A stretch of 64,000 nucleotides of DNA, from assembly GCA_040954595.2 (NCBI GenBank), contig CM082584.2, positions 1,350,281-1,414,280 of the forward strand, written 5' to 3'. Below the pieces are notes generated by a model that saw only the letters and a list, made by a program, of their open reading frames with translations, ran no database searches and was not told the DNA's origin. This document shows, in pieces, positions 2,105-11,502 of this stretch; position 1 is the stretch's first letter, and each line of letters begins with the position of its first letter. The translations under genes were made by a program, and so were the position numbers. The DNA comes from Balanoglossus misakiensis. Taxonomy: Eukaryota; Animalia; Hemichordata.

Positions 2105-2361
2105 TACATGCAGCTGTATGGGACCAAAATAATACACCCGATTCGGGGGTCACCTGTGACACCTGCTTAACTCAATAATTATGTGCATGCGTAATTGTGG
2201 GGTCAATGAAAGGGGTGGTAACGTGGTATTTGTTGCACATGGATCAATATGAAGTCCGATTTTCCCGTCAAGTTGTGGGCGACCTTATGTGACCTTTCAC
2301 CTACTTTTGCTTAGTGAGCATCCACAGAAGATGCATGCAGCTTTGGCTTGGGGGGGGGGGG
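2105..2361. repeat. Degenerate ~230-250 bp tandem repeat, left part (interrupted by the BEL insertion)
   Basis: ggggtcacctgtgacacctgcttaa (~2146) resembles ggggtcacctgttgcacctgcctaa (~11254). gtggtatttgttgcacatgga (~2223) resembles gtggtttttgttccacaggga (~11329). tgcagctttgg occurs at ~2336 and ~11443. Confidence 0.7.
2357..2361. other. Left target-site duplication GGGGG (partner 11212-11216)
   Basis: G12 at 2350-2361 precedes the 5' LTR and G6 at 11212-11217 follows the 3' LTR. The exact TSD length cannot be fixed in a homopolymer. Confidence 0.75.
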
Positions 2362-2971
2362 TGTGGCTGAAGCCATGCAAAAACAAAGGAATTTAGTATT
2401 TTTAATTATGAGGGATAAGCACGAACAGTTTGTTGCCTAAAAACCTTACTCCATAAAAATAGTTCCCTTTTTGTTACGAGTTTCGATATTGTAGACTTTT
2501 AATTTTCACAGAGAAAGATGTTGTGACTTTATGTGTACCTTTGAAGGTCATTGTGAACACATCGACAAACCATATTTCGCCCAAAAGTTTTACAAGTAGT
2601 CCATCTACGATTGTCATATCACTACACATTTTTTACCTCGTGTTTTCGACTTCGCTATGGGACGGTGAAGTACACCCTCGTCTCTCGTTTCGCACCCTTT
2701 GATATTTCGTTCGTATTTCGAAACTTCCCGACCACATACAAGGCTTTACAAGTCGCCAGCGAGGTAATATATCTTTCGGTATTCTTACAGATATGAATTG
2801 TATTTCGTGAAACTTTATTGCAATTAGACTTTGACGAGTTGTCTGCATCTTGTACATCAGTCACGTACATCGAACTGTGTTGCTTGCACATATCTGTTTT
2901 CGATTGAAATCATTCTCGATTTTCGTATATGTAATTCTTTCGATTTGACATTTTGTATTTGTATTTATGTT

Positions 2972-2977
2972 TCAGTT
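2972..2977 (+). promoter_or_regulatory. Putative Initiator (TCAGTT), predicted +1 at A2974
   Basis: Matches the invertebrate Inr consensus TCA(+1)GTY. It follows an AT-rich stretch and marks a compositional change to the microrepeat region. No clear TATA box at -30. Confidence 0.55.
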
Positions 2978-3242
2978 TTTACGGTTTACGGTTTACTCGG
3001 TCTATACCATTCGGTCTTGGTCTATTCGAGACAAGGTCTATTACGGTCTAAGACTATTCGGTTTACTCGGTCTTTTCGTACCACGGTTTATTCGGTCTAT
3101 TCGAATCAGTCTCGGTCATTCTCGAGGTCTATTTGGCCTATTCGCATCGAGGTCTGCGCACATCTCGTCTTTCGAAGTCTTTCGACTATTGTGTACAGTC
3201 TCGTACGGTCGCTTTCGGCGATCGCTCGATCGATTTATCGAT

Positions 3243-3248
3243 AATAAA
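3243..3248 (+). promoter_or_regulatory. LTR polyadenylation signal AATAAA (3' LTR copy at 11139-11144)
   Basis: AATAAA about 70 nt before the LTR end, the expected position near the R/U5 boundary. Confidence 0.65.
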
Positions 3249-3315
3249 CCGAAGACCCGTATATGGAAACTCGACTCTGACTTTTGAATATTACGGAAAA
3301 GCTTTGGCGGTCACA

Positions 3316-3324
3316 GTAAAAACT
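3316..3324 (+). other. Non-canonical primer-binding site GTAAAAACT
   Basis: Occupies the PBS position directly after the 5' LTR, lacks the TGG that pairs with tRNA CCA, and is complementary to 2974-2982. Confidence 0.6.
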
Positions 3325-4002
3325 CGGGCGCAAGTAAAAACTCGAGCGCGAGTAGGAACTCGGACCTTCGAAACAGAACTCGGAACGGACGTAAGTCTTT
3401 CAACGATTTTATTGCTGTTCGATCTGGAGGTGAAATTATCGTCCTACACCATTGTGTGTGACGTCATCGGTTCATCCGAAGACTCGTCGTCGAGGGCGCT
3501 GTTACATGGTTCAGCCAGTATTCGCCTATTACCCTACTGTTGAATCAACCCATGAAGACTACAGACTGCAGAGAAGAGTGAAGATGTTCAGCGACTGTTA
3601 ACAGAAGCAGCGGATTGAACATTCTGGACACTCTCCTTCGGAATTAGGACAGAATATTGAACATTGACTTTGAACATTAATATTGAACTTTGAACTCTGA
3701 GCACATTTCCTCATTGTCATTTTGGCTTGTGTGCATGTGTGATTTGAACATTCAGTTTTATCAATGTCCCCAAATTGTGCACATTAGTGTCACTCGTATC
3801 AGCCTTTGCGATACAAAGAGTCTCCTTTGTTGAAACTCACACAGTTTTGTATTTGTCAAAGTGTTTGAAATTGTTCACTGTCAGTACCCGGCATCAAATT
3901 GCTTGTGTTACTCCCTCGGGTTTAGATTTCTAAATTTGTATCTGCACTGAATAGTCACAGTGATTGTTTCAGCTCTCTAGTTGTGTTCACCCAAGTTCAA
4001 CT

Positions 4003-7000
4003 ATGGCCGAAAAGGACACACAGGAATCAGTGCCAACCGCTGATGATCAAGGTAAGCCTGATGAAACAGATCAAATTGTAACAAAAGCAGAGATCCATGA
4101 AACTGAAATGGATGAAAATGTGTATACATTACGCAGATCAGAACGAGTACCCAAGCTTACTGAGAAAGCTAGGGAAGGTAAGTTAATTGATTTGGAGAAG
4201 CAGTTCTGGCGTACTCACAATCGGTTGTTGTCATTTGTGAACAACCCTGACATATTCGACAAAGAGTCTGTAGAAAACATATATACTATTTTGAAAGAAA
4301 TAGAGCGCGAGCGCACTGTTTTGATTGAAATTCATGATCAGATACGCGCCGTGTCGGACACCCCCTTAGAGGATGTATTGAAAGCCGTCGATGTTTGAAT
4401 TTGCGCGTGGATAGTGTCATCAATTATGCACAGCGACTGATTGCGCGAGCCGATGCTCATAGCTCAGTTTCATTCGGATCCGTGCCTTCAAATCACACAA
4501 AGTCGAGCTCTAGGTCATCCAAACGATCCAGCTCTTCCAGTACGTCATCAGTACGGAGAAACGCTGCTGTCAGGGCAGCTGCCCTACAGGCGGAAATCGA
4601 GGCAAAACATGAAGAGACAGCACATGAAGAGGAATTGGAACACTTAGAGGCAGAAATACGTCGTAAGAAAAGAGTGTTAGAACGACAGAAACTGGTAGGA
4701 GAACTGCATGTGGAGAAAGCGAAGATAGCTGCTTGTGAAAGAGAAGAACTACTTGACAACCTGCCATTAGCAAAGACTATATTGCCACCGGTGACAAGCG
4801 AGTTGCCTGTCGTGAAGACCGAACCGATCAGCCAGTCGACACCAGCTGCTCACATTCCCACGCGTACTGTAAAAGCAGAACCAGTCACCCCGCCGACTAC
4901 CAAGCTGTCGACGTCGCAACCGAAACCACAAGATTATACACTACGTGCAACAGCTAACGAATATCGCCCATCGGAGAACAGAGAAGACCTCAAGGTATTG
5001 ACAGAAGCCTTGGCAACATCTGTGTCCTTGAGCAGACTTGCTACACCCGAACCACCAATATTCATGGGAGACGCACGTTCTTATCCAGATTGGATATCTT
5101 CTTTTACCACTTTAGTTGAATCACGAGGGGTCCCACCAATCGAAAGAATCCATCACCTGAAGAAGTATTTGGGTGGTCCTGCTAAGGAAGCAGTCGCCGG
5201 ATGCTTCTTACTCCGAAGTGAAGGAGCATACGAAGAGGCAAGAACCATTCTGGAAGAACGATACGGTAATTCTTTCGCCGTAACAGAGGCCTTCAGAGAA
5301 AAAATCGAAAGATGGCCGAGAATCTCCGGCAAGGACGGGAAGGCATTGCGAAAGTTCGCAGACTTCTTGAAACAATGCCGGATTGCAATGAAGGATATCC
5401 CAGACCTCGCAGTGCTGAACGATATCCACGAAAATAGGAAAATGCTCCAGAAGTTACCGGACTGGCTCGTAAACAGATGGAGCAGGATCGTAGAAAAAAT
5501 AAAAAAGGCTACGAACGCATACCCCCCATTCGAAAGATTTGTCTGCTTCATGATGGAGGAGGCAGATATTGCATGTGACCCATTGACCTCAATCGGCTCG
5601 CTAAGGTCACCAACGGACAGAGACCCGGAGAAAACTCCGACCAGCACCAGGAGGCGCACCCCAGGTGCACGTACGCTCTCGACCACAGCAAAACCAGGGG
5701 CGGTAAACCAGTCGTGTGTTTTCTGCAAAAAGACTGGGCACGCTATACAGGAATGTTATAGCTTCGCTTCCACGCCTATGTCTGAAAGACAGGAATTTGT
5801 TCGAAAGGGCGGTTACTGCTTCGGATGTCTTAACACGGGGCACATCTCAAAGAACTGCAAATCCCGTGGCGTGTGTAAAAAATGCAGTAGGAAACTTCCC
5901 ACCAGTCTGCATTCCGACGAAAAAATTGTTCAGCCGAGGACATTTAACTCGTCCATGAACGAAACCATGAGCACTGTTCAGTCTCCAGTGCGAGACTACA
6001 GAAAAGAAACCACACCTGAAACGAAGAAAGCGCACTGCTATGGTGTGACTTGCCCGCGAGGAAAGTCTATTTCGTCGATGATCGTTCCAGTATGGATTTC
6101 TGGATACGAAGAACCGAACAGAGAGATTCTAGTGTACGCGCTGTTGGACACACAGTCAGACACTACTTTCGTGTTGGATCATGTCGCTGAACAGCTACAC
6201 ACAGCATCTGAGCCAGCAAACCTTCGTATGACAACCATGACAACGAGCAACAAGGTTGTCGCCTGTCACAAGTATCGCAAACTCAGAGTTCGCGGATTTG
6301 ACTGTGACAAAATAGTTCCGTTGCCCACTACGTATTCGCTTGATTACATACCAGTGGAAAAATCGCACATACCCACTCATGATATGGCCAATGGGTGGCC
6401 TCATCTTAGAGAAATCGCTACTCGTATTCATCCTCAACAGAAATGTGAAGTTGGTCTGTTGATAGGTTATGATTGTCCCCAAGCCCTAGCACCTCGTAGC
6501 TGTGTCACAGGCAGTGGAAATCAGCCATTCACAGTAGAGACAGACTTAGGATGGAGCATCGTCGGACATCTTACACATCGAGATGAAAGGGAAGATGTCT
6601 TCAGTTTTACCCATAGAGTACTTACAAAGGTGATACCAGACAGTCTACAACCAGGTGTAGACAGTCAGCAGAGACTTCGTATGGAAGAGTCTCATTCGTC
6701 GGCAGTTCGTTATGCCTTTAAGACCACAGCCAAGGAGCAAGTCCTCAACCCTTTGGACGTGGTGAGAATTCTCGAATCGGACTTCAACGAACAAAGAGTT
6801 GAAGAAACCGCCATGTCTCAGGACGACATTCGATTTTTGAAGATCATGGAAAATGGTATTTCGAAAGAACCAGATGGATTCTATACAATGCCACTTCCAT
6901 TCAGACAAGATAGACCAGCGCTCCCAAACAACAGATGTATAGCGCAGCAGAGACTTCAGTACTTGAAAAGGCGCTTCAAGTCAAACCCAAAGTATCTGAA

Positions 7001-10000
7001 CGACTACAGAAACTTCATGGAAGACATTATCGCGTCAGGAGATGCGGAACTGGTCGACGACAACAATACACATGATGGATCGATGTGGTATATTCCACAC
7101 CATGGGGTGTATCACCCTAAAAAAACAGACAAAATTCGTGTCGTGTTCGATTGTAGTGCAAGGTTCAAGGGAACGAGCCTCAACGATCATTTGTTGCAGG
7201 GACCGGATCAGATAAATTCCCTCATCGGTGTACTTTGTCGTTTTCGCAAAGAGAACATCGCAGTCATGTGTGACATCGAGCGAATGTTCCACAGATTCAG
7301 AGTCAAGAAAGATGACAGAAACTATCTCCGATTCCTTTGGTGGAGAGATGGTAATGTCGACTCGGAACCAGTTACTTACAGGATGAATGTTCACCTATTC
7401 GGCGCTGTGTCCTCGCCAGGATGCGCGAACTACGGACTTCGACAAGTGGCCAAAGACAACCCACAACATGGAAAGAGTGCAGTAGATTTCGTCGCAAAGA
7501 ATTTCTATGTTGATGATGGTCTCCATAGTCTCGAGACTGCATCAGAGGCTGTCCAACTTATACAGGATGTTCGCAACCTTTGCGCAGAAGGAAATTTACG
7601 TCTGCACAAGTTCATATCGAATGACAGAACTACGATGGAATCTGTCCCTATTTCAGAGCGTGCCAAGAATGTCAAGGATTTGGATTTGTCGTTCAGTGAG
7701 CTACCTATCGAAAGAGCACTTGGAATCGAGTGGCGCGTTGAATCAGACTCGTTCCATTTTTCGCCTATCGTCAAGATGCACTCGCCTTCTCGCCGTGGAA
7801 TACTTTCAGCAGTAGCATCTGTTTTCGATCCTCTCGGATTTCTCGCACCTTTCGTACTTCGAGGAAAACGGATCTTGCAAGAGATGTGCAAGAAAGGAAC
7901 CGATTGGGATGATCCCTTGCCAGACGATTTACGTCCGAGGTGGGAATCATGGCTTGCTGAGTTGCCCAAGCTAGACGACTTGAAGATAAGAAGGTGCTTC
8001 AAGCCGCAACATTTCGGACCAGTGAAGAAAGTTGAGCTTCACCACTTCTCGGATGCCAGCCTGACAGGTTATGGGCAGTGTTCGTATATCAGACTAGTCG
8101 ACAGTCTAGATAATATTCATTGTTCGCTCGTGATGGGAAAGGCTAGAGTCGCCCCTTTGAAACCCATTACTGTTCCTCGATTGGAACTTCAAGCTGCTGT
8201 TGTTTCTATACAGGTCAGCAATCTACTGAACAAAGAGTTAGATTACCCAGTGATGGAGAACTTCTACTTGACAGACTCGAAAGTGGTACTCGGCTACATA
8301 GGAAATGATGCTCGCCGCTTCCACATATATGTCGCGAATCGCATACAAAGAATTAAAGGAATCATCTCAGCCAGAGCAGTGGCGCTATGTCCACACTGAG
8401 GAGAACCCTGCAGATCATGCATCTCGTTGACTCGGCGTTGATGGACTGATGAAGTCCAATTGGTTTAGAGGTCCTGCCTTTTTGTGGGACAAAGAGCTTC
8501 CTCTGTCCACTCGGGTATACGCACAGGTGTCAGCAGATGACCCCGAGGTAAAGAATACCAGAACATTGATGACTTCCTCGACTGCAACGTCATCCATGTT
8601 ACATCGTGTAGAGCGATTTTCGGATTGGAACAAGGTTGTAGGAGCATTCGCCACCTTGTATCGCTATGTATCCGGGAAGGGAAAGCGAAAGGAAATCGCT
8701 TCCGGAGAAACAAGACAGAAAGCTACCATGGCCATCGTGGCATGGGCCCAACAGGAAGCTTTCAAAGAAGAAATAGAGTCATTGAAATGTCGCACCTCAG
8801 AAGACAGTGAACCCTCAATGGTGAAACGTAACAGTCACCTGTACCCATTGAACCCATACCTAGATGATCAGCAGATACTCAGAGTTGGAGGCAGACTGAG
8901 TAGATCCTCCATGCCTGACTATGTCAAGCACCCTATTATTCTACCACGAAAAAGTCACGTGACTACACTGCTTATCAGGTGGTGTCATGAGCAAGTGGCC
9001 CACCAGGGACGTGGTATTACAGTGAACAAACTCAGATCGTGTGGATTCTGGATCATCAACTGCAACACAGCAGTCGCTTCGTATATACACAAGTGTGTTC
9101 AGTGTAGGAAACTCAGAGGCAAGGCCAACACACAGAGAATGGCAGATTTGCCCAAAGATCGTCTCGAGCCATCGCCGCCATTTACCTATTGTGGAATGGA
9201 CTGCTTTGGACCTTTCGTCGTGAAGGAACGCCGCAGTGATGTGAAACGATATGGTGTCATTTTCACTTGCCTAGCGCTTCGAGCCATACACATAGAGGTT
9301 GTCGAAGAAATGTCAACCGATGCATTTTTGAATTCGCTTCGCACATTCATCGCTATCAGAGGACCCGTACGACACTTGCGTTGTGATCGGGGATCCAATT
9401 TCGTAGGAGCCAGGAATGAGCTTCAGCTTGGATTGCAAGCTCTCGACGAAGGAAGAATCAAAGATGTGTTGTCCAAACGACAGTGTGAATTTGTTTTCAA
9501 TTCACCCTCCTCGAGTCATATGGGAGGCGTTTGGGAACGTCAAATACGGTCGGTCAGAAACGTTCTCGTAGGAATTCTGGAAAAGATGGGATCCAGATTG
9601 AACACTTCGTCTCTTCGTACTCTGATGTACGAAGCAATGGCGATCGTGAATAGTCGACCCTTATCAGCAGAAAACTTGAACGACCCTACTGGACCGATGC
9701 CTCTTACTCCAAATCAGCTGCTGACTATGAAATCGGATGTGATTTTGCCACCGCCAGGCAACTTCGTCAGAGAAGATCTGTATGCCAGGAAACGATGGCG
9801 TGCTGTTCAGTATCTTGCGAACGAGTTCTGGACAAGATGGCGTAAGGAATACTTACAGAATCTACAGGCCAGACAGAAGTGGCAGGAAACGAAGAGAAAC
9901 CTTGAAGTTGGAGATATTGTACTTCTGAAGGAAGATGACACTGTGAGAAATCAGTGGAGACTTGCAAAAGTAATAGACACTTTGCGCGATGATGATTGTT

Positions 10001-10152
10001 TGATACGCAGAGTCACTATCCTTGTGGGTGATCCCAACCTCTCGAAACAAGGACAAGGTAAGAAAGTAGACAAGGCAACAATTTTAGAAAGGCCTATTCA
10101 TAAGCTTGTTTTATTGGTAGAAAATCCCGAAGCAGAAAAAATGCTAAGGTAA
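4003..10152 (+). pseudogene. BEL/Pao gag-pol polyprotein (about 2050 aa when reconstructed), disrupted
   Basis: ATG at 4003; frameshift at ~4390-4398; Cys/His knuckles 5715-5912; protease LLDTQS (D at 6147); RT YVDD 7506-7517; RNaseH FSDAS 8046-8060; +1 frameshift at 8355-8359; TGA at 8428-8430; integrase HH-CC and D(9199)-D(9385)-E(9535); stop at 10150-10152. Confidence 0.93.
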
Positions 10153-10248
10153 GTTGTTCTCAGCGACACAGGGGAGAGCTGAGAAATAGCTTGGACGTAT
10201 TTGGTAGTTGTTTTCAGTGTTTCGATTAGGTAAAATCAATGTGATTTT

Positions 10249-10257
10249 AGGGGGGAG
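10249..10257 (+). other. Polypurine tract AGGGGGGAG
   Basis: Purine run preceded by TTTT and directly abutting the TGT of the 3' LTR. Confidence 0.9.
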
Positions 10258-11211
10258 TGTGGCTGAAGCCATGCAAAAACAAAGGAATTTAGTATTTTCA
10301 ATTATGAGGGATATGCACGAACAGTTTGTTGCCTAAAAACCTTACTCCATAAAAATAGTTCCCTTTTTGTTACGAGTTTCGATATTGTAGACTTTTAATT
10401 TTCACAGAGAAAGATGTTGTGACTTTATGTGTACCTTTGAAGGTCATTGTGAACACATCGACAAACCATATTTCGCCCAAAAGTTTTACAAGTAGTCCAT
10501 CTACGATTGTCATATCACTACACATTTTTTACCTCGTGTTTTCGACTTCGCTATGGGACGGTGAAGTACACCCTCGTCTCTCGTTTCGCACCCTTTGATA
10601 TTTCGTTCGTATTTCGAAACTTCCCGACCACATACAAGGCTTTACAAGTCGCCAGCGAGGTAATATATCTTTCGGTATTCTTACAGATATGAATTGTATT
10701 TCGTGAAACTTTATTGCAATTAGACTTTGACGAGTTGTCAGCATCTTGTACATCAGTCACGTACATCGAACTGTGTTGCTTGCACATATCTGTTTTCGAT
10801 TGAAATCATTCTCGATTTTCGTATATGTAATTCTTTCGATTTGACATTTTGTATTTGTATTTATGTTTCAGTTTTTACGGTTTACGGTTTACTCGGTCTA
10901 TACCATTCGGTCTTGGTCTATTCGAGACAAGGTCTATTACGGTCTAAGACTATTCGGTTTACTCGGTCTTTTCGTACCACGGTTTATTCGGTCTATTCGA
11001 ATCAGTCTCGGTCATTCTCGAGGTCTATTTGGCCTATTCGCATCGAGGTCTGCGCACATCTCGTCTTTCGAAGTCTTTCGACTATTGTGTACAGTCTCGT
11101 ACGGTCGCTTTCGGCGATCGCTCGATCGATTTATCGATAATAAACCGAAGACCCGTATATGGAAACTCGACTCTGACTTTTGAATATTACGGAAAAGCTT
11201 TGGCGGTCACA
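10258..11211 (+). repeat. 3' LTR
   Basis: Same length as the 5' LTR. Differences seen: 2403 T/10299 C, 2418 A/10314 T, 2844 T/10740 A. Confidence 0.96.
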
Positions 11212-11502
11212 GGGGGGCATATACGGATGGGACCATAATGATATACCAAAGGCGGGGTCACCTGTTGCACCTGCCTAAGTCATTGATTTTGTACATTTAA
11301 TTGGACACTAACCAACAGGGCGATAGGTGTGGTTTTTGTTCCACAGGGACGAATGTAAGTGTCAGTTGGTTTTTGCCCAAATGTATAAGGTGATTTTGAT
11401 GACCTCTGTCATACAGTGCCATATCTCATCCCGTTGTACAGGTGCAGCTTTGGTATTTGGAGGGATGAAATACCAAATACAGGGGGATACCTTTGACACC
11501 TG
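11212..11502. repeat. Degenerate ~230-250 bp tandem repeat, right part
   Basis: Co-linear similarity to 2105-2361. A third unit start, ggggatacctttgacacctg (11483-11502), is cut off by the satellite. Confidence 0.7.

Follow-up and report, generated by a model that had tools for sequence, protein, structure and literature searches.

A BEL/Pao Retrotransposon Predicted to Prime Reverse Transcription with a Splice-Assembled Segment of Its Own RNA

The 64,000-nt stretch of DNA analyzed here, referred to as the window, carries a young BEL/Pao retrotransposon that very probably primes minus-strand DNA with its own RNA, through a predicted exon–exon junction supplied by host splicing. Sequence comparison supports self-priming with a primer assembled by splicing, rather than one formed by the first 9 nt from an initiator (Inr). 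If true, the spliceosome makes the primer, and self-priming in BEL/Pao would be without precedent in the literature searched. Replication would then be tied to host splicing control and not to tRNA supply, and many aquatic BEL/Pao elements without a recognizable tRNA site would be explained. A simple annotation rule would follow, with the U3/R boundary of such elements shifted upstream of a hidden intron.

Results

The Element and Its Surroundings

The element spans window 2362–11211 and is bounded by two LTRs that differ at 3 positions (Table 1). Its reading frame is broken in this copy, with frame changes near 4390 and near 8380 and an in-frame stop near 8430. The assignment to BEL/Pao made in an initial annotation was borne out by Pao-type domains (Peptidase_A17, DUF1759, and DUF5641). 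The domain order is DUF1759, RVT_1 (weak, below cut-off), Peptidase_A17, integrase H2C2 (below cut-off), and DUF5641. The Belpaoviridae traits found are a Pao-type Gag-PR-RT-RH-IN order, TG...CA LTRs within 0.2–1.2 kb, and a polypurine tract (PPT) before the 3′ LTR. The tRNA-site trait of that family (18 nt, tRNA-Arg/Gly) is not among them: no TGG follows the LTR end, confirming the earlier remark that the internal region lacks a TGG-type primer-binding site at its start. Since the tRNA site is a descriptive trait in the ICTV profile and not a phylogenetic criterion, the element remains BEL/Pao by its proteins while appearing to depart from the described priming mode.

The insertion point is a G run on both flanks, so the exact length of the target duplication is unreadable. 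Segments of 77% similarity flank the element (2118–2188 and 11227–11296), and the G run lies inside a high-copy repeat. Contig joints that skip the whole element, considered as an empty allele, probably represent other copies of this surrounding repeat instead. Elsewhere in the window, 1–1837 holds the RT region of a broken non-LTR retrotransposon (RVT_1, E 1.6e-15) with an AATAA/TTA-like tail near 1756–1775, and 11503–64000 is filled by a 78-nt AT-rich satellite in well over 500 copies, possibly centromeric or pericentromeric.

Table 1. Features of the element and of its predicted priming apparatus, in window coordinates
Feature	Position	Strand	Description
5′ LTR	2362..3315	+	TG...CA ends, 954 nt, 99.7% identity to 10258-11211
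Exon-1 part of predicted primer	2760..2763	+	Pairs with 3323-3326; pairing best among 54 upstream GT/GC sites
Predicted 212-nt GT-AG intron	2764..2975	+	Donor CGAG|GTAATA, branch-like TTGAC at 2945, pyrimidine tract, acceptor TTTCAG
Exon-2 part of predicted primer	2976..2982	+	Pairs with 3316-3322; 3′ end at C2982
AATAAA poly(A) signal	3243..3248	+	Sole AATAAA in the LTR; downstream of the primer
11-nt predicted primer-binding site	3316..3326	+	Abuts the LTR end, without TGG; exact complement of the spliced junction
Primer-binding motif repeats	3334..3363	+	Second exact 11-mer at 3334-3344, degenerate third copy, 18-nt period
gag-pol, BEL/Pao type	4003..10152	+	Peptidase_A17 E 1e-45, DUF1759, DUF5641 E 1e-25, integrase H2C2
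Polypurine tract	10249..10257	+	Adjoins the 3′ LTR; read from sequence
3′ LTR	10258..11211	+	Intron kept here too, at 10660-10871

A Complement in the LTR Interrupted by a Predicted Intron

The initial annotation had drawn attention to a 9-nt complement between the LTR and the first internal bases. Checked base by base, 3316–3324 is indeed the exact reverse complement of 2974–2982, and pairing halts at the LTR boundary, with C2982:G3316 paired and G2983:A3315 unpaired. The accompanying chance estimate of 1–2% agrees with 83 of 5000 dinucleotide shuffles (1.7%) in which the 9-mer was matched somewhere in the LTR; 41 of 6934 internal 9-mers find a complement there. The geometry fits a primer, since elongation from C2982 as the 3′ end would proceed into the LTR. 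Taken alone, a 9-nt complement at a single locus is weak evidence.

The 9-mer begins within TCAGTT at 2972, the sole occurrence of this hexamer in the LTR. TTTCAG (2970–2975), with a pyrimidine tract before it, looks like a splice acceptor. The donor of the predicted intron, 2763|2764, has a moderate consensus fit (6 of 9 positions) and is tied second among 39 upstream GT sites. In silico removal of the intron extends the match from 9 to 11 nt (4 + 7) against 3316–3326, ending at the LTR edge. The window has 9 contiguous paired bases because exon 1 happens to end in AG, the same as the acceptor.

Exon 2 is expanded at 2978–3185 by short 7–10 nt repeats, and the poly(A) signal thus lies 260 nt from the primer. 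The primer-binding motif also recurs with an 18-nt period at 3315–3363, where only the first copy abuts the LTR, possibly as a relic of slippage at plus-strand transfer.

Relatives and Choice of Junctions

A protein search yielded 6038 relatives from 7969 scored candidates; among the 120 matches listed, fish, hemichordate, and echinoderm proteins stand at ~57–66% RT-RNase H identity. The third Gag knuckle, CX2CX3HX4H, was present in 86 of 92 matched relatives. With a query alignment of 30 sequences, we recovered 79 loci in metagenome contigs (best 80 of 368 confirmed, in a scan over 48 of 64 parts) and a further 10 in genome contigs, 89 loci altogether. BEL/Pao loci L080–L089 lie on bacterial-bin contigs (Endozoicomonas, Sedimenticola, Brevinema, and Poribacteria titles) and are probably animal host DNA binned with symbiont genomes. 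No relatives of the element were found in the viral contigs searched.

LTR–internal junctions were picked for the window element and 58 of the 89 loci. Three picks that were not LTR ends were dropped (L021, L059, and L075, the last with a different candidate junction found later that gives a 10-nt spliced match), and the junction of L088 was reassigned following an initial inspection. The 56 remaining picks represent 42 families at 90% RT identity, of which 33 (the window and 32 others) have at least 300 contiguous LTR bases up to the LTR end and were tested; 9 were too short. A second LTR copy fixed the LTR end in 12 of the 33, and the other 21 ends were chosen by eye on an ACA|GT motif, a possible bias.

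To gauge this bias, we re-examined the 34 unpicked loci, most of which lack the 5′ end; none contained a credible tRNA-type site. In L032, whose site starts with AT and whose end is fixed by two LTRs that are 71% identical, both LTRs give a 12-nt spliced match. L039 is a repeat of the L088 family, and L049 is a miss, with a full 333-nt LTR, 9 contiguous nt, and no donor. A CA|TGG candidate in L040 turned out to be the gag start codon. In a junction-free scan of 1300-nt AT-rich texts, chance matches of at least 10 nt arose at up to ~4% of CA positions, so single 10-nt matches without a fixed LTR end are weak.

Spliced Complementarity Across Families

For the family test, any GT–AG pair at least 50 nt apart was allowed and the match was anchored at site base 1. 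Spliced matches of at least 10 nt occurred in 29 of 33 families (28 of 32 excluding the window): 3 at 10 nt, 20 at 11 nt, and 6 at 12–14 nt. Matches of at least 11 nt, found in 26 of the 33, appeared in controls with other families' sites in 6/1024, 6/964, and 2/890 pairs (sites with at least 1, 2, and 3 differences). GT-starting pseudo-sites from coding DNA gave at least 11 nt in 4/1980 and 10 nt in 16/1980; the control rate at 11 nt is 0.2–0.6%. The 12 families with a fixed end comprised 9 spliced matches of at least 11 nt, 1 contiguous match of 11 nt, and 2 misses. Predicted intron lengths range from 76 to 1321 nt.

In 13 of the 29 spliced-match families, exon 1 lacks a terminal AG, and the contiguous match is just 5–8 nt where the spliced match is 10–11. 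Some relatives have no contiguous complement at all; they carry an upstream textbook donor and a pyrimidine tract with YAG, and exon joining yields the exact post-LTR complement. Of the earlier proposal of self-priming from the element's own LTR, an LTR-derived primer with its 3′ end at C2982 is supported; a contiguous 9-nt primer is not, since these 13 families pair over 10–11 nt only across the junction.

Families outside the spliced class take several forms. In L055 and L082, which miss in the test, the expected donor is present, and a single base change affects the acceptor or exon 2. L002 and L073 have contiguous matches of 11 and 10 nt, respectively. Their LTRs (L002:6647–6954 and L073:1412–1791) are short, making them candidate intron-less families or copies, and L002 clusters weakly with intron-bearing L012/L064 on the RT tree. 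As apparently intron-less cases, L002 and L073 show that the intron would be dispensable in some copies or families.

Covariation and Splice-Site Consensus

The initial annotation had pointed to covariation among relatives as a check, and many relatives do repeat the pattern with compensatory changes: 21 distinct 11-mer sites occur among the 29 spliced-match families, each matched by the LTR of its own family. The RT tree was built from 33 sequences (the window and 32 loci, without named reference elements); 15 of its 30 inner branches are starred, and two rows are long. Along this tree, site positions 3–11 changed at least 56 times in all, and the position of the intron within the primer shifted at least 9 times. 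Pairing holds in 26 of 29 families at base 11 vs. 7 of 29, i.e., chance level, at base 12. Because positions 1–10 pair by selection of the matches, it is this sharp end at 11, together with the controls, that carries weight.

The splice sites were chosen by pairing and GT/AG alone, leaving the remaining consensus positions as an independent check. Across the 29 families, the donor has A at +3 in 23, A at +4 in 17, G at +5 in 24, and T at +6 in 17 (background 25, 29, 17, and 36%). Acceptor position −3 is C or T in all 29 (background 51%), and the tract is 66% pyrimidine (background 53%).

Just before primer base 1 lies a purine motif (G at −4 in 22/29, A at −2 in 23/29) whose alignment is better when anchored to the primer than to the donor. 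It occupies 5 nt, is GGGA(C/A)-like and in register with the 11-nt primer (GCCAG in the window), and could mark 5′ trimming or a binding site. Immediately 3′ of the primer, 25 of 29 families have a G, and the base at this position never pairs with the LTR terminal A. No TATA-like motif keeps a constant spacing from the start of the primer.

Precise Intron Loss and a Candidate Primer–cDNA Joint

The 3′ LTR of L061 corresponds to the L065 LTR minus its 536-nt intron, with exact removal (92% over 319 nt); the L061 5′ LTR retains the acceptor. A precise loss of this kind would be the mark of spliced RNA copied into DNA, and the contig may be a two-copy chimera.

One contig from sequencing run X1, which contains this element, follows the window up to 2763 and then continues with 21 letters that are the reverse complement of 3302–3322. 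In one reading it consists of exon 1, 7 exon-2 bases, and minus-strand DNA of the LTR end—the predicted primer–cDNA joint; in the opposite reading, plus-strand synthesis ran beyond the site and copied the primer. The breakpoint coincides with the predicted position to the base. The joint could possibly be a template switch, as it is a single contig with 4 nt of microhomology, from a run presumed to be DNA. The initial annotation had taken the Inr-like TCAGTT as the start of the primer; the X1 contig puts sequence upstream of 2974 in the primer, and that start is better read as an acceptor mistaken for an initiator. In this sense the earlier reading is partly supported: it had the location and the general type of mechanism right.

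Among the contig joints listed for X1–X3, none runs from 2763 to 2976, as would an intron-less LTR of the window family; this is no proof of absence. A depth peak of run X2 over 3084–3311 was considered as strong-stop DNA and rejected: it is centered on a GATC cluster, and the loose ends of that run resemble ligation joints.

Duplex Stability and Leader Folding

The isolated duplex has an energy of −13.4 kcal/mol for the 11-nt spliced match vs. −6.9 kcal/mol for the 9-mer. In equilibrium folding of naked RNA, the helix reaches P ≥ 0.5 in 15 of 29 spliced leaders vs. 4 of 28 unspliced ones. For the window leader P is ~0; its exon 2 is long and repetitive.

Discussion

Proposed Mechanism

In the mechanism that we propose, transcription would start somewhere upstream of 2760, and the host spliceosome would remove the cap-proximal predicted intron from the LTR transcript. 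The spliced junction would fold onto 3316–3326, probably with nucleocapsid help, and a cut after C2982—by RNase H, by analogy to Tf1—would free a 3′ OH. RT would then copy U5 and R back to the cut and jump to the RNA 3′ end, a strand transfer that would use the sequence between the cut and the poly(A) site. The intron copy in the 3′ LTR would usually have to stay unspliced, so that the intron survives in both new LTRs; rare splicing of this copy would give intron-less LTRs such as that of L061, and perhaps those of L002 and L073. Plus-strand synthesis would copy the primer, so that site and primer stay matched during evolution (concerted change).

For the relatives as a whole, we lean toward a widespread animal BEL/Pao clade with a spliceosomal intron inside the RT primer. 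Splicing of the 5′ LTR would license replication, and the identical 3′ copy, left unspliced, would pass the intron on; the same splice switch might also set which LTR is polyadenylated. This would be a third way of priming, beside tRNA and a contiguous 5′ self-primer. It raises the puzzle of how the intron persists through reverse transcription, and of how splicing can treat two identical LTRs in one RNA differently.

Alternative Readings

A splice-built primer might act in trans. In that case a short LTR RNA, spliced and ending at the nearby poly(A) signal, would originate from the 5′, the 3′, or a solo LTR, be trimmed, and anneal to unspliced genomic RNA. We count this variant within our overall confidence in a splice-built primer and regard it as rather unlikely. 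It explains intron survival in both LTRs without extra rules; the poly(A) hexamer lies 5–74 nt past the primer in 20 of 29 families (260 nt in the window, absent in 8); and the cis helix is not favored in 14 of 29 folds, the window among them. On the other side, Tf1 acts in cis (PMC7175516), and a trans primer requires co-packaging and a way of making the primer 3′ end. By analogy with Tf1, folding in cis is favored, with the short spliced LTR RNA in trans as the main variant.

We consider it very improbable that a small RNA of the host, such as a tRNA fragment, serves as primer and that the LTR complement is an RNA structure with another role, such as packaging or translation control. The ICTV profile does give tRNA-Arg or tRNA-Gly priming for Belpaoviridae (PMC8742986), but none of the 56 picked sites starts with TGG (35 GTA, 20 GTC, 1 GTG; about 44 were picked by the ACA|GT motif). 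The many forms of the site, each tracked by its own LTR, also argue against this reading, as do a duplex that stops at the LTR boundary, the point from which priming has to proceed, and the covalent joint in the X1 contig. No tRNA gene was found in the 64,000-nt window, and positions 2300–4100 gave no Rfam match with E ≤ 1.

Slimmer still are the prospects of a Tf1-like transcription start at Inr A2974 with the first 9 unspliced nt as primer, a model already contradicted as a general mechanism: the 9-nt match does begin at the only TCAGTT of the LTR and many relatives whose exon 1 ends in AG show 7–9 contiguous nt, but in 13 of 29 families the pairing breaks at the AG and 10–11 nt are attained after splicing only, intron loss in L061 is precise, the X1 joint contains exon 1, and the 9-mer duplex is about half as stable.

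Comparison with Known Systems

Our literature search found no report of BEL/Pao self-priming or of a splice-built primer in the accessible texts; subscription journals, Repbase Reports, GyDB, or supplements could hold one. By term search, the available text of the BEL/Pao surveys PMC3118150, PMC8556966, PMC6238403, and PMC12440569 contains no mention of priming, and that of PMC554778 contains none of "PBS," "tRNA," or "priming"; the accessible sections of PMC8220671 mention the primer-binding site only generically.

In domain content and order, LTR size, and PPT, the window element resembles Belpaoviridae and the aquatic Sinbad-like (Sailor) lineages, and the third Gag knuckle of most matched relatives, CX2CX3HX4H, is as in Sinbad/Pao, unlike Suzu (PMC554778). 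The ICTV profile describes the Belpaoviridae site as 18 nt, tRNA-Arg/Gly, and calls replication poorly understood (PMC8742986); the clade described here, unlike that profile, lacks such a site.

Self-priming has been predicted from LTR-to-site complementarity in the Ty1/copia TAR lineage (Houba, Osr-1) and in plant Tcn1 chromoviruses (PMC6317226), and these predictions show that it arose more than once; hairpin priming has been put forward as a possible ancestral state (PMC3601003). Those elements have plant hosts and belong to other superfamilies, and the accessible account of them mentions no primer intron, unlike the predicted primer here.

The closest parallel is with Tf1/Tf2 of Schizosaccharomyces pombe, which self-prime (PMC7175516, PMC5341516); in Tf1, bases 1–11 of the transcript anneal to the site, and RNase H cleaves directly after base 11 (PMC7175516). 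Like Tf1/Tf2 and the Tf1/sushi group of Ty3/gypsy, the window element would use no tRNA, an element-derived primer, and an 11-nt duplex adjoining the LTR, and the modal spliced match of 11 nt (20 of 33 families), with chance level from base 12, equals the Tf1 length. It is not a member of that group: it belongs to the BEL/Pao superfamily, and its proteins are Pao-specific, not those of a Ty3/gypsy chromovirus. The Tf1 primer is one uninterrupted stretch of the DNA and forms the 5′ terminus of the RNA, whereas in 29 of 33 families an intron divides the primer predicted here, which would exist after splicing only and, to judge from the 12–14 nt matches in 6 families, need not be 5′-terminal.
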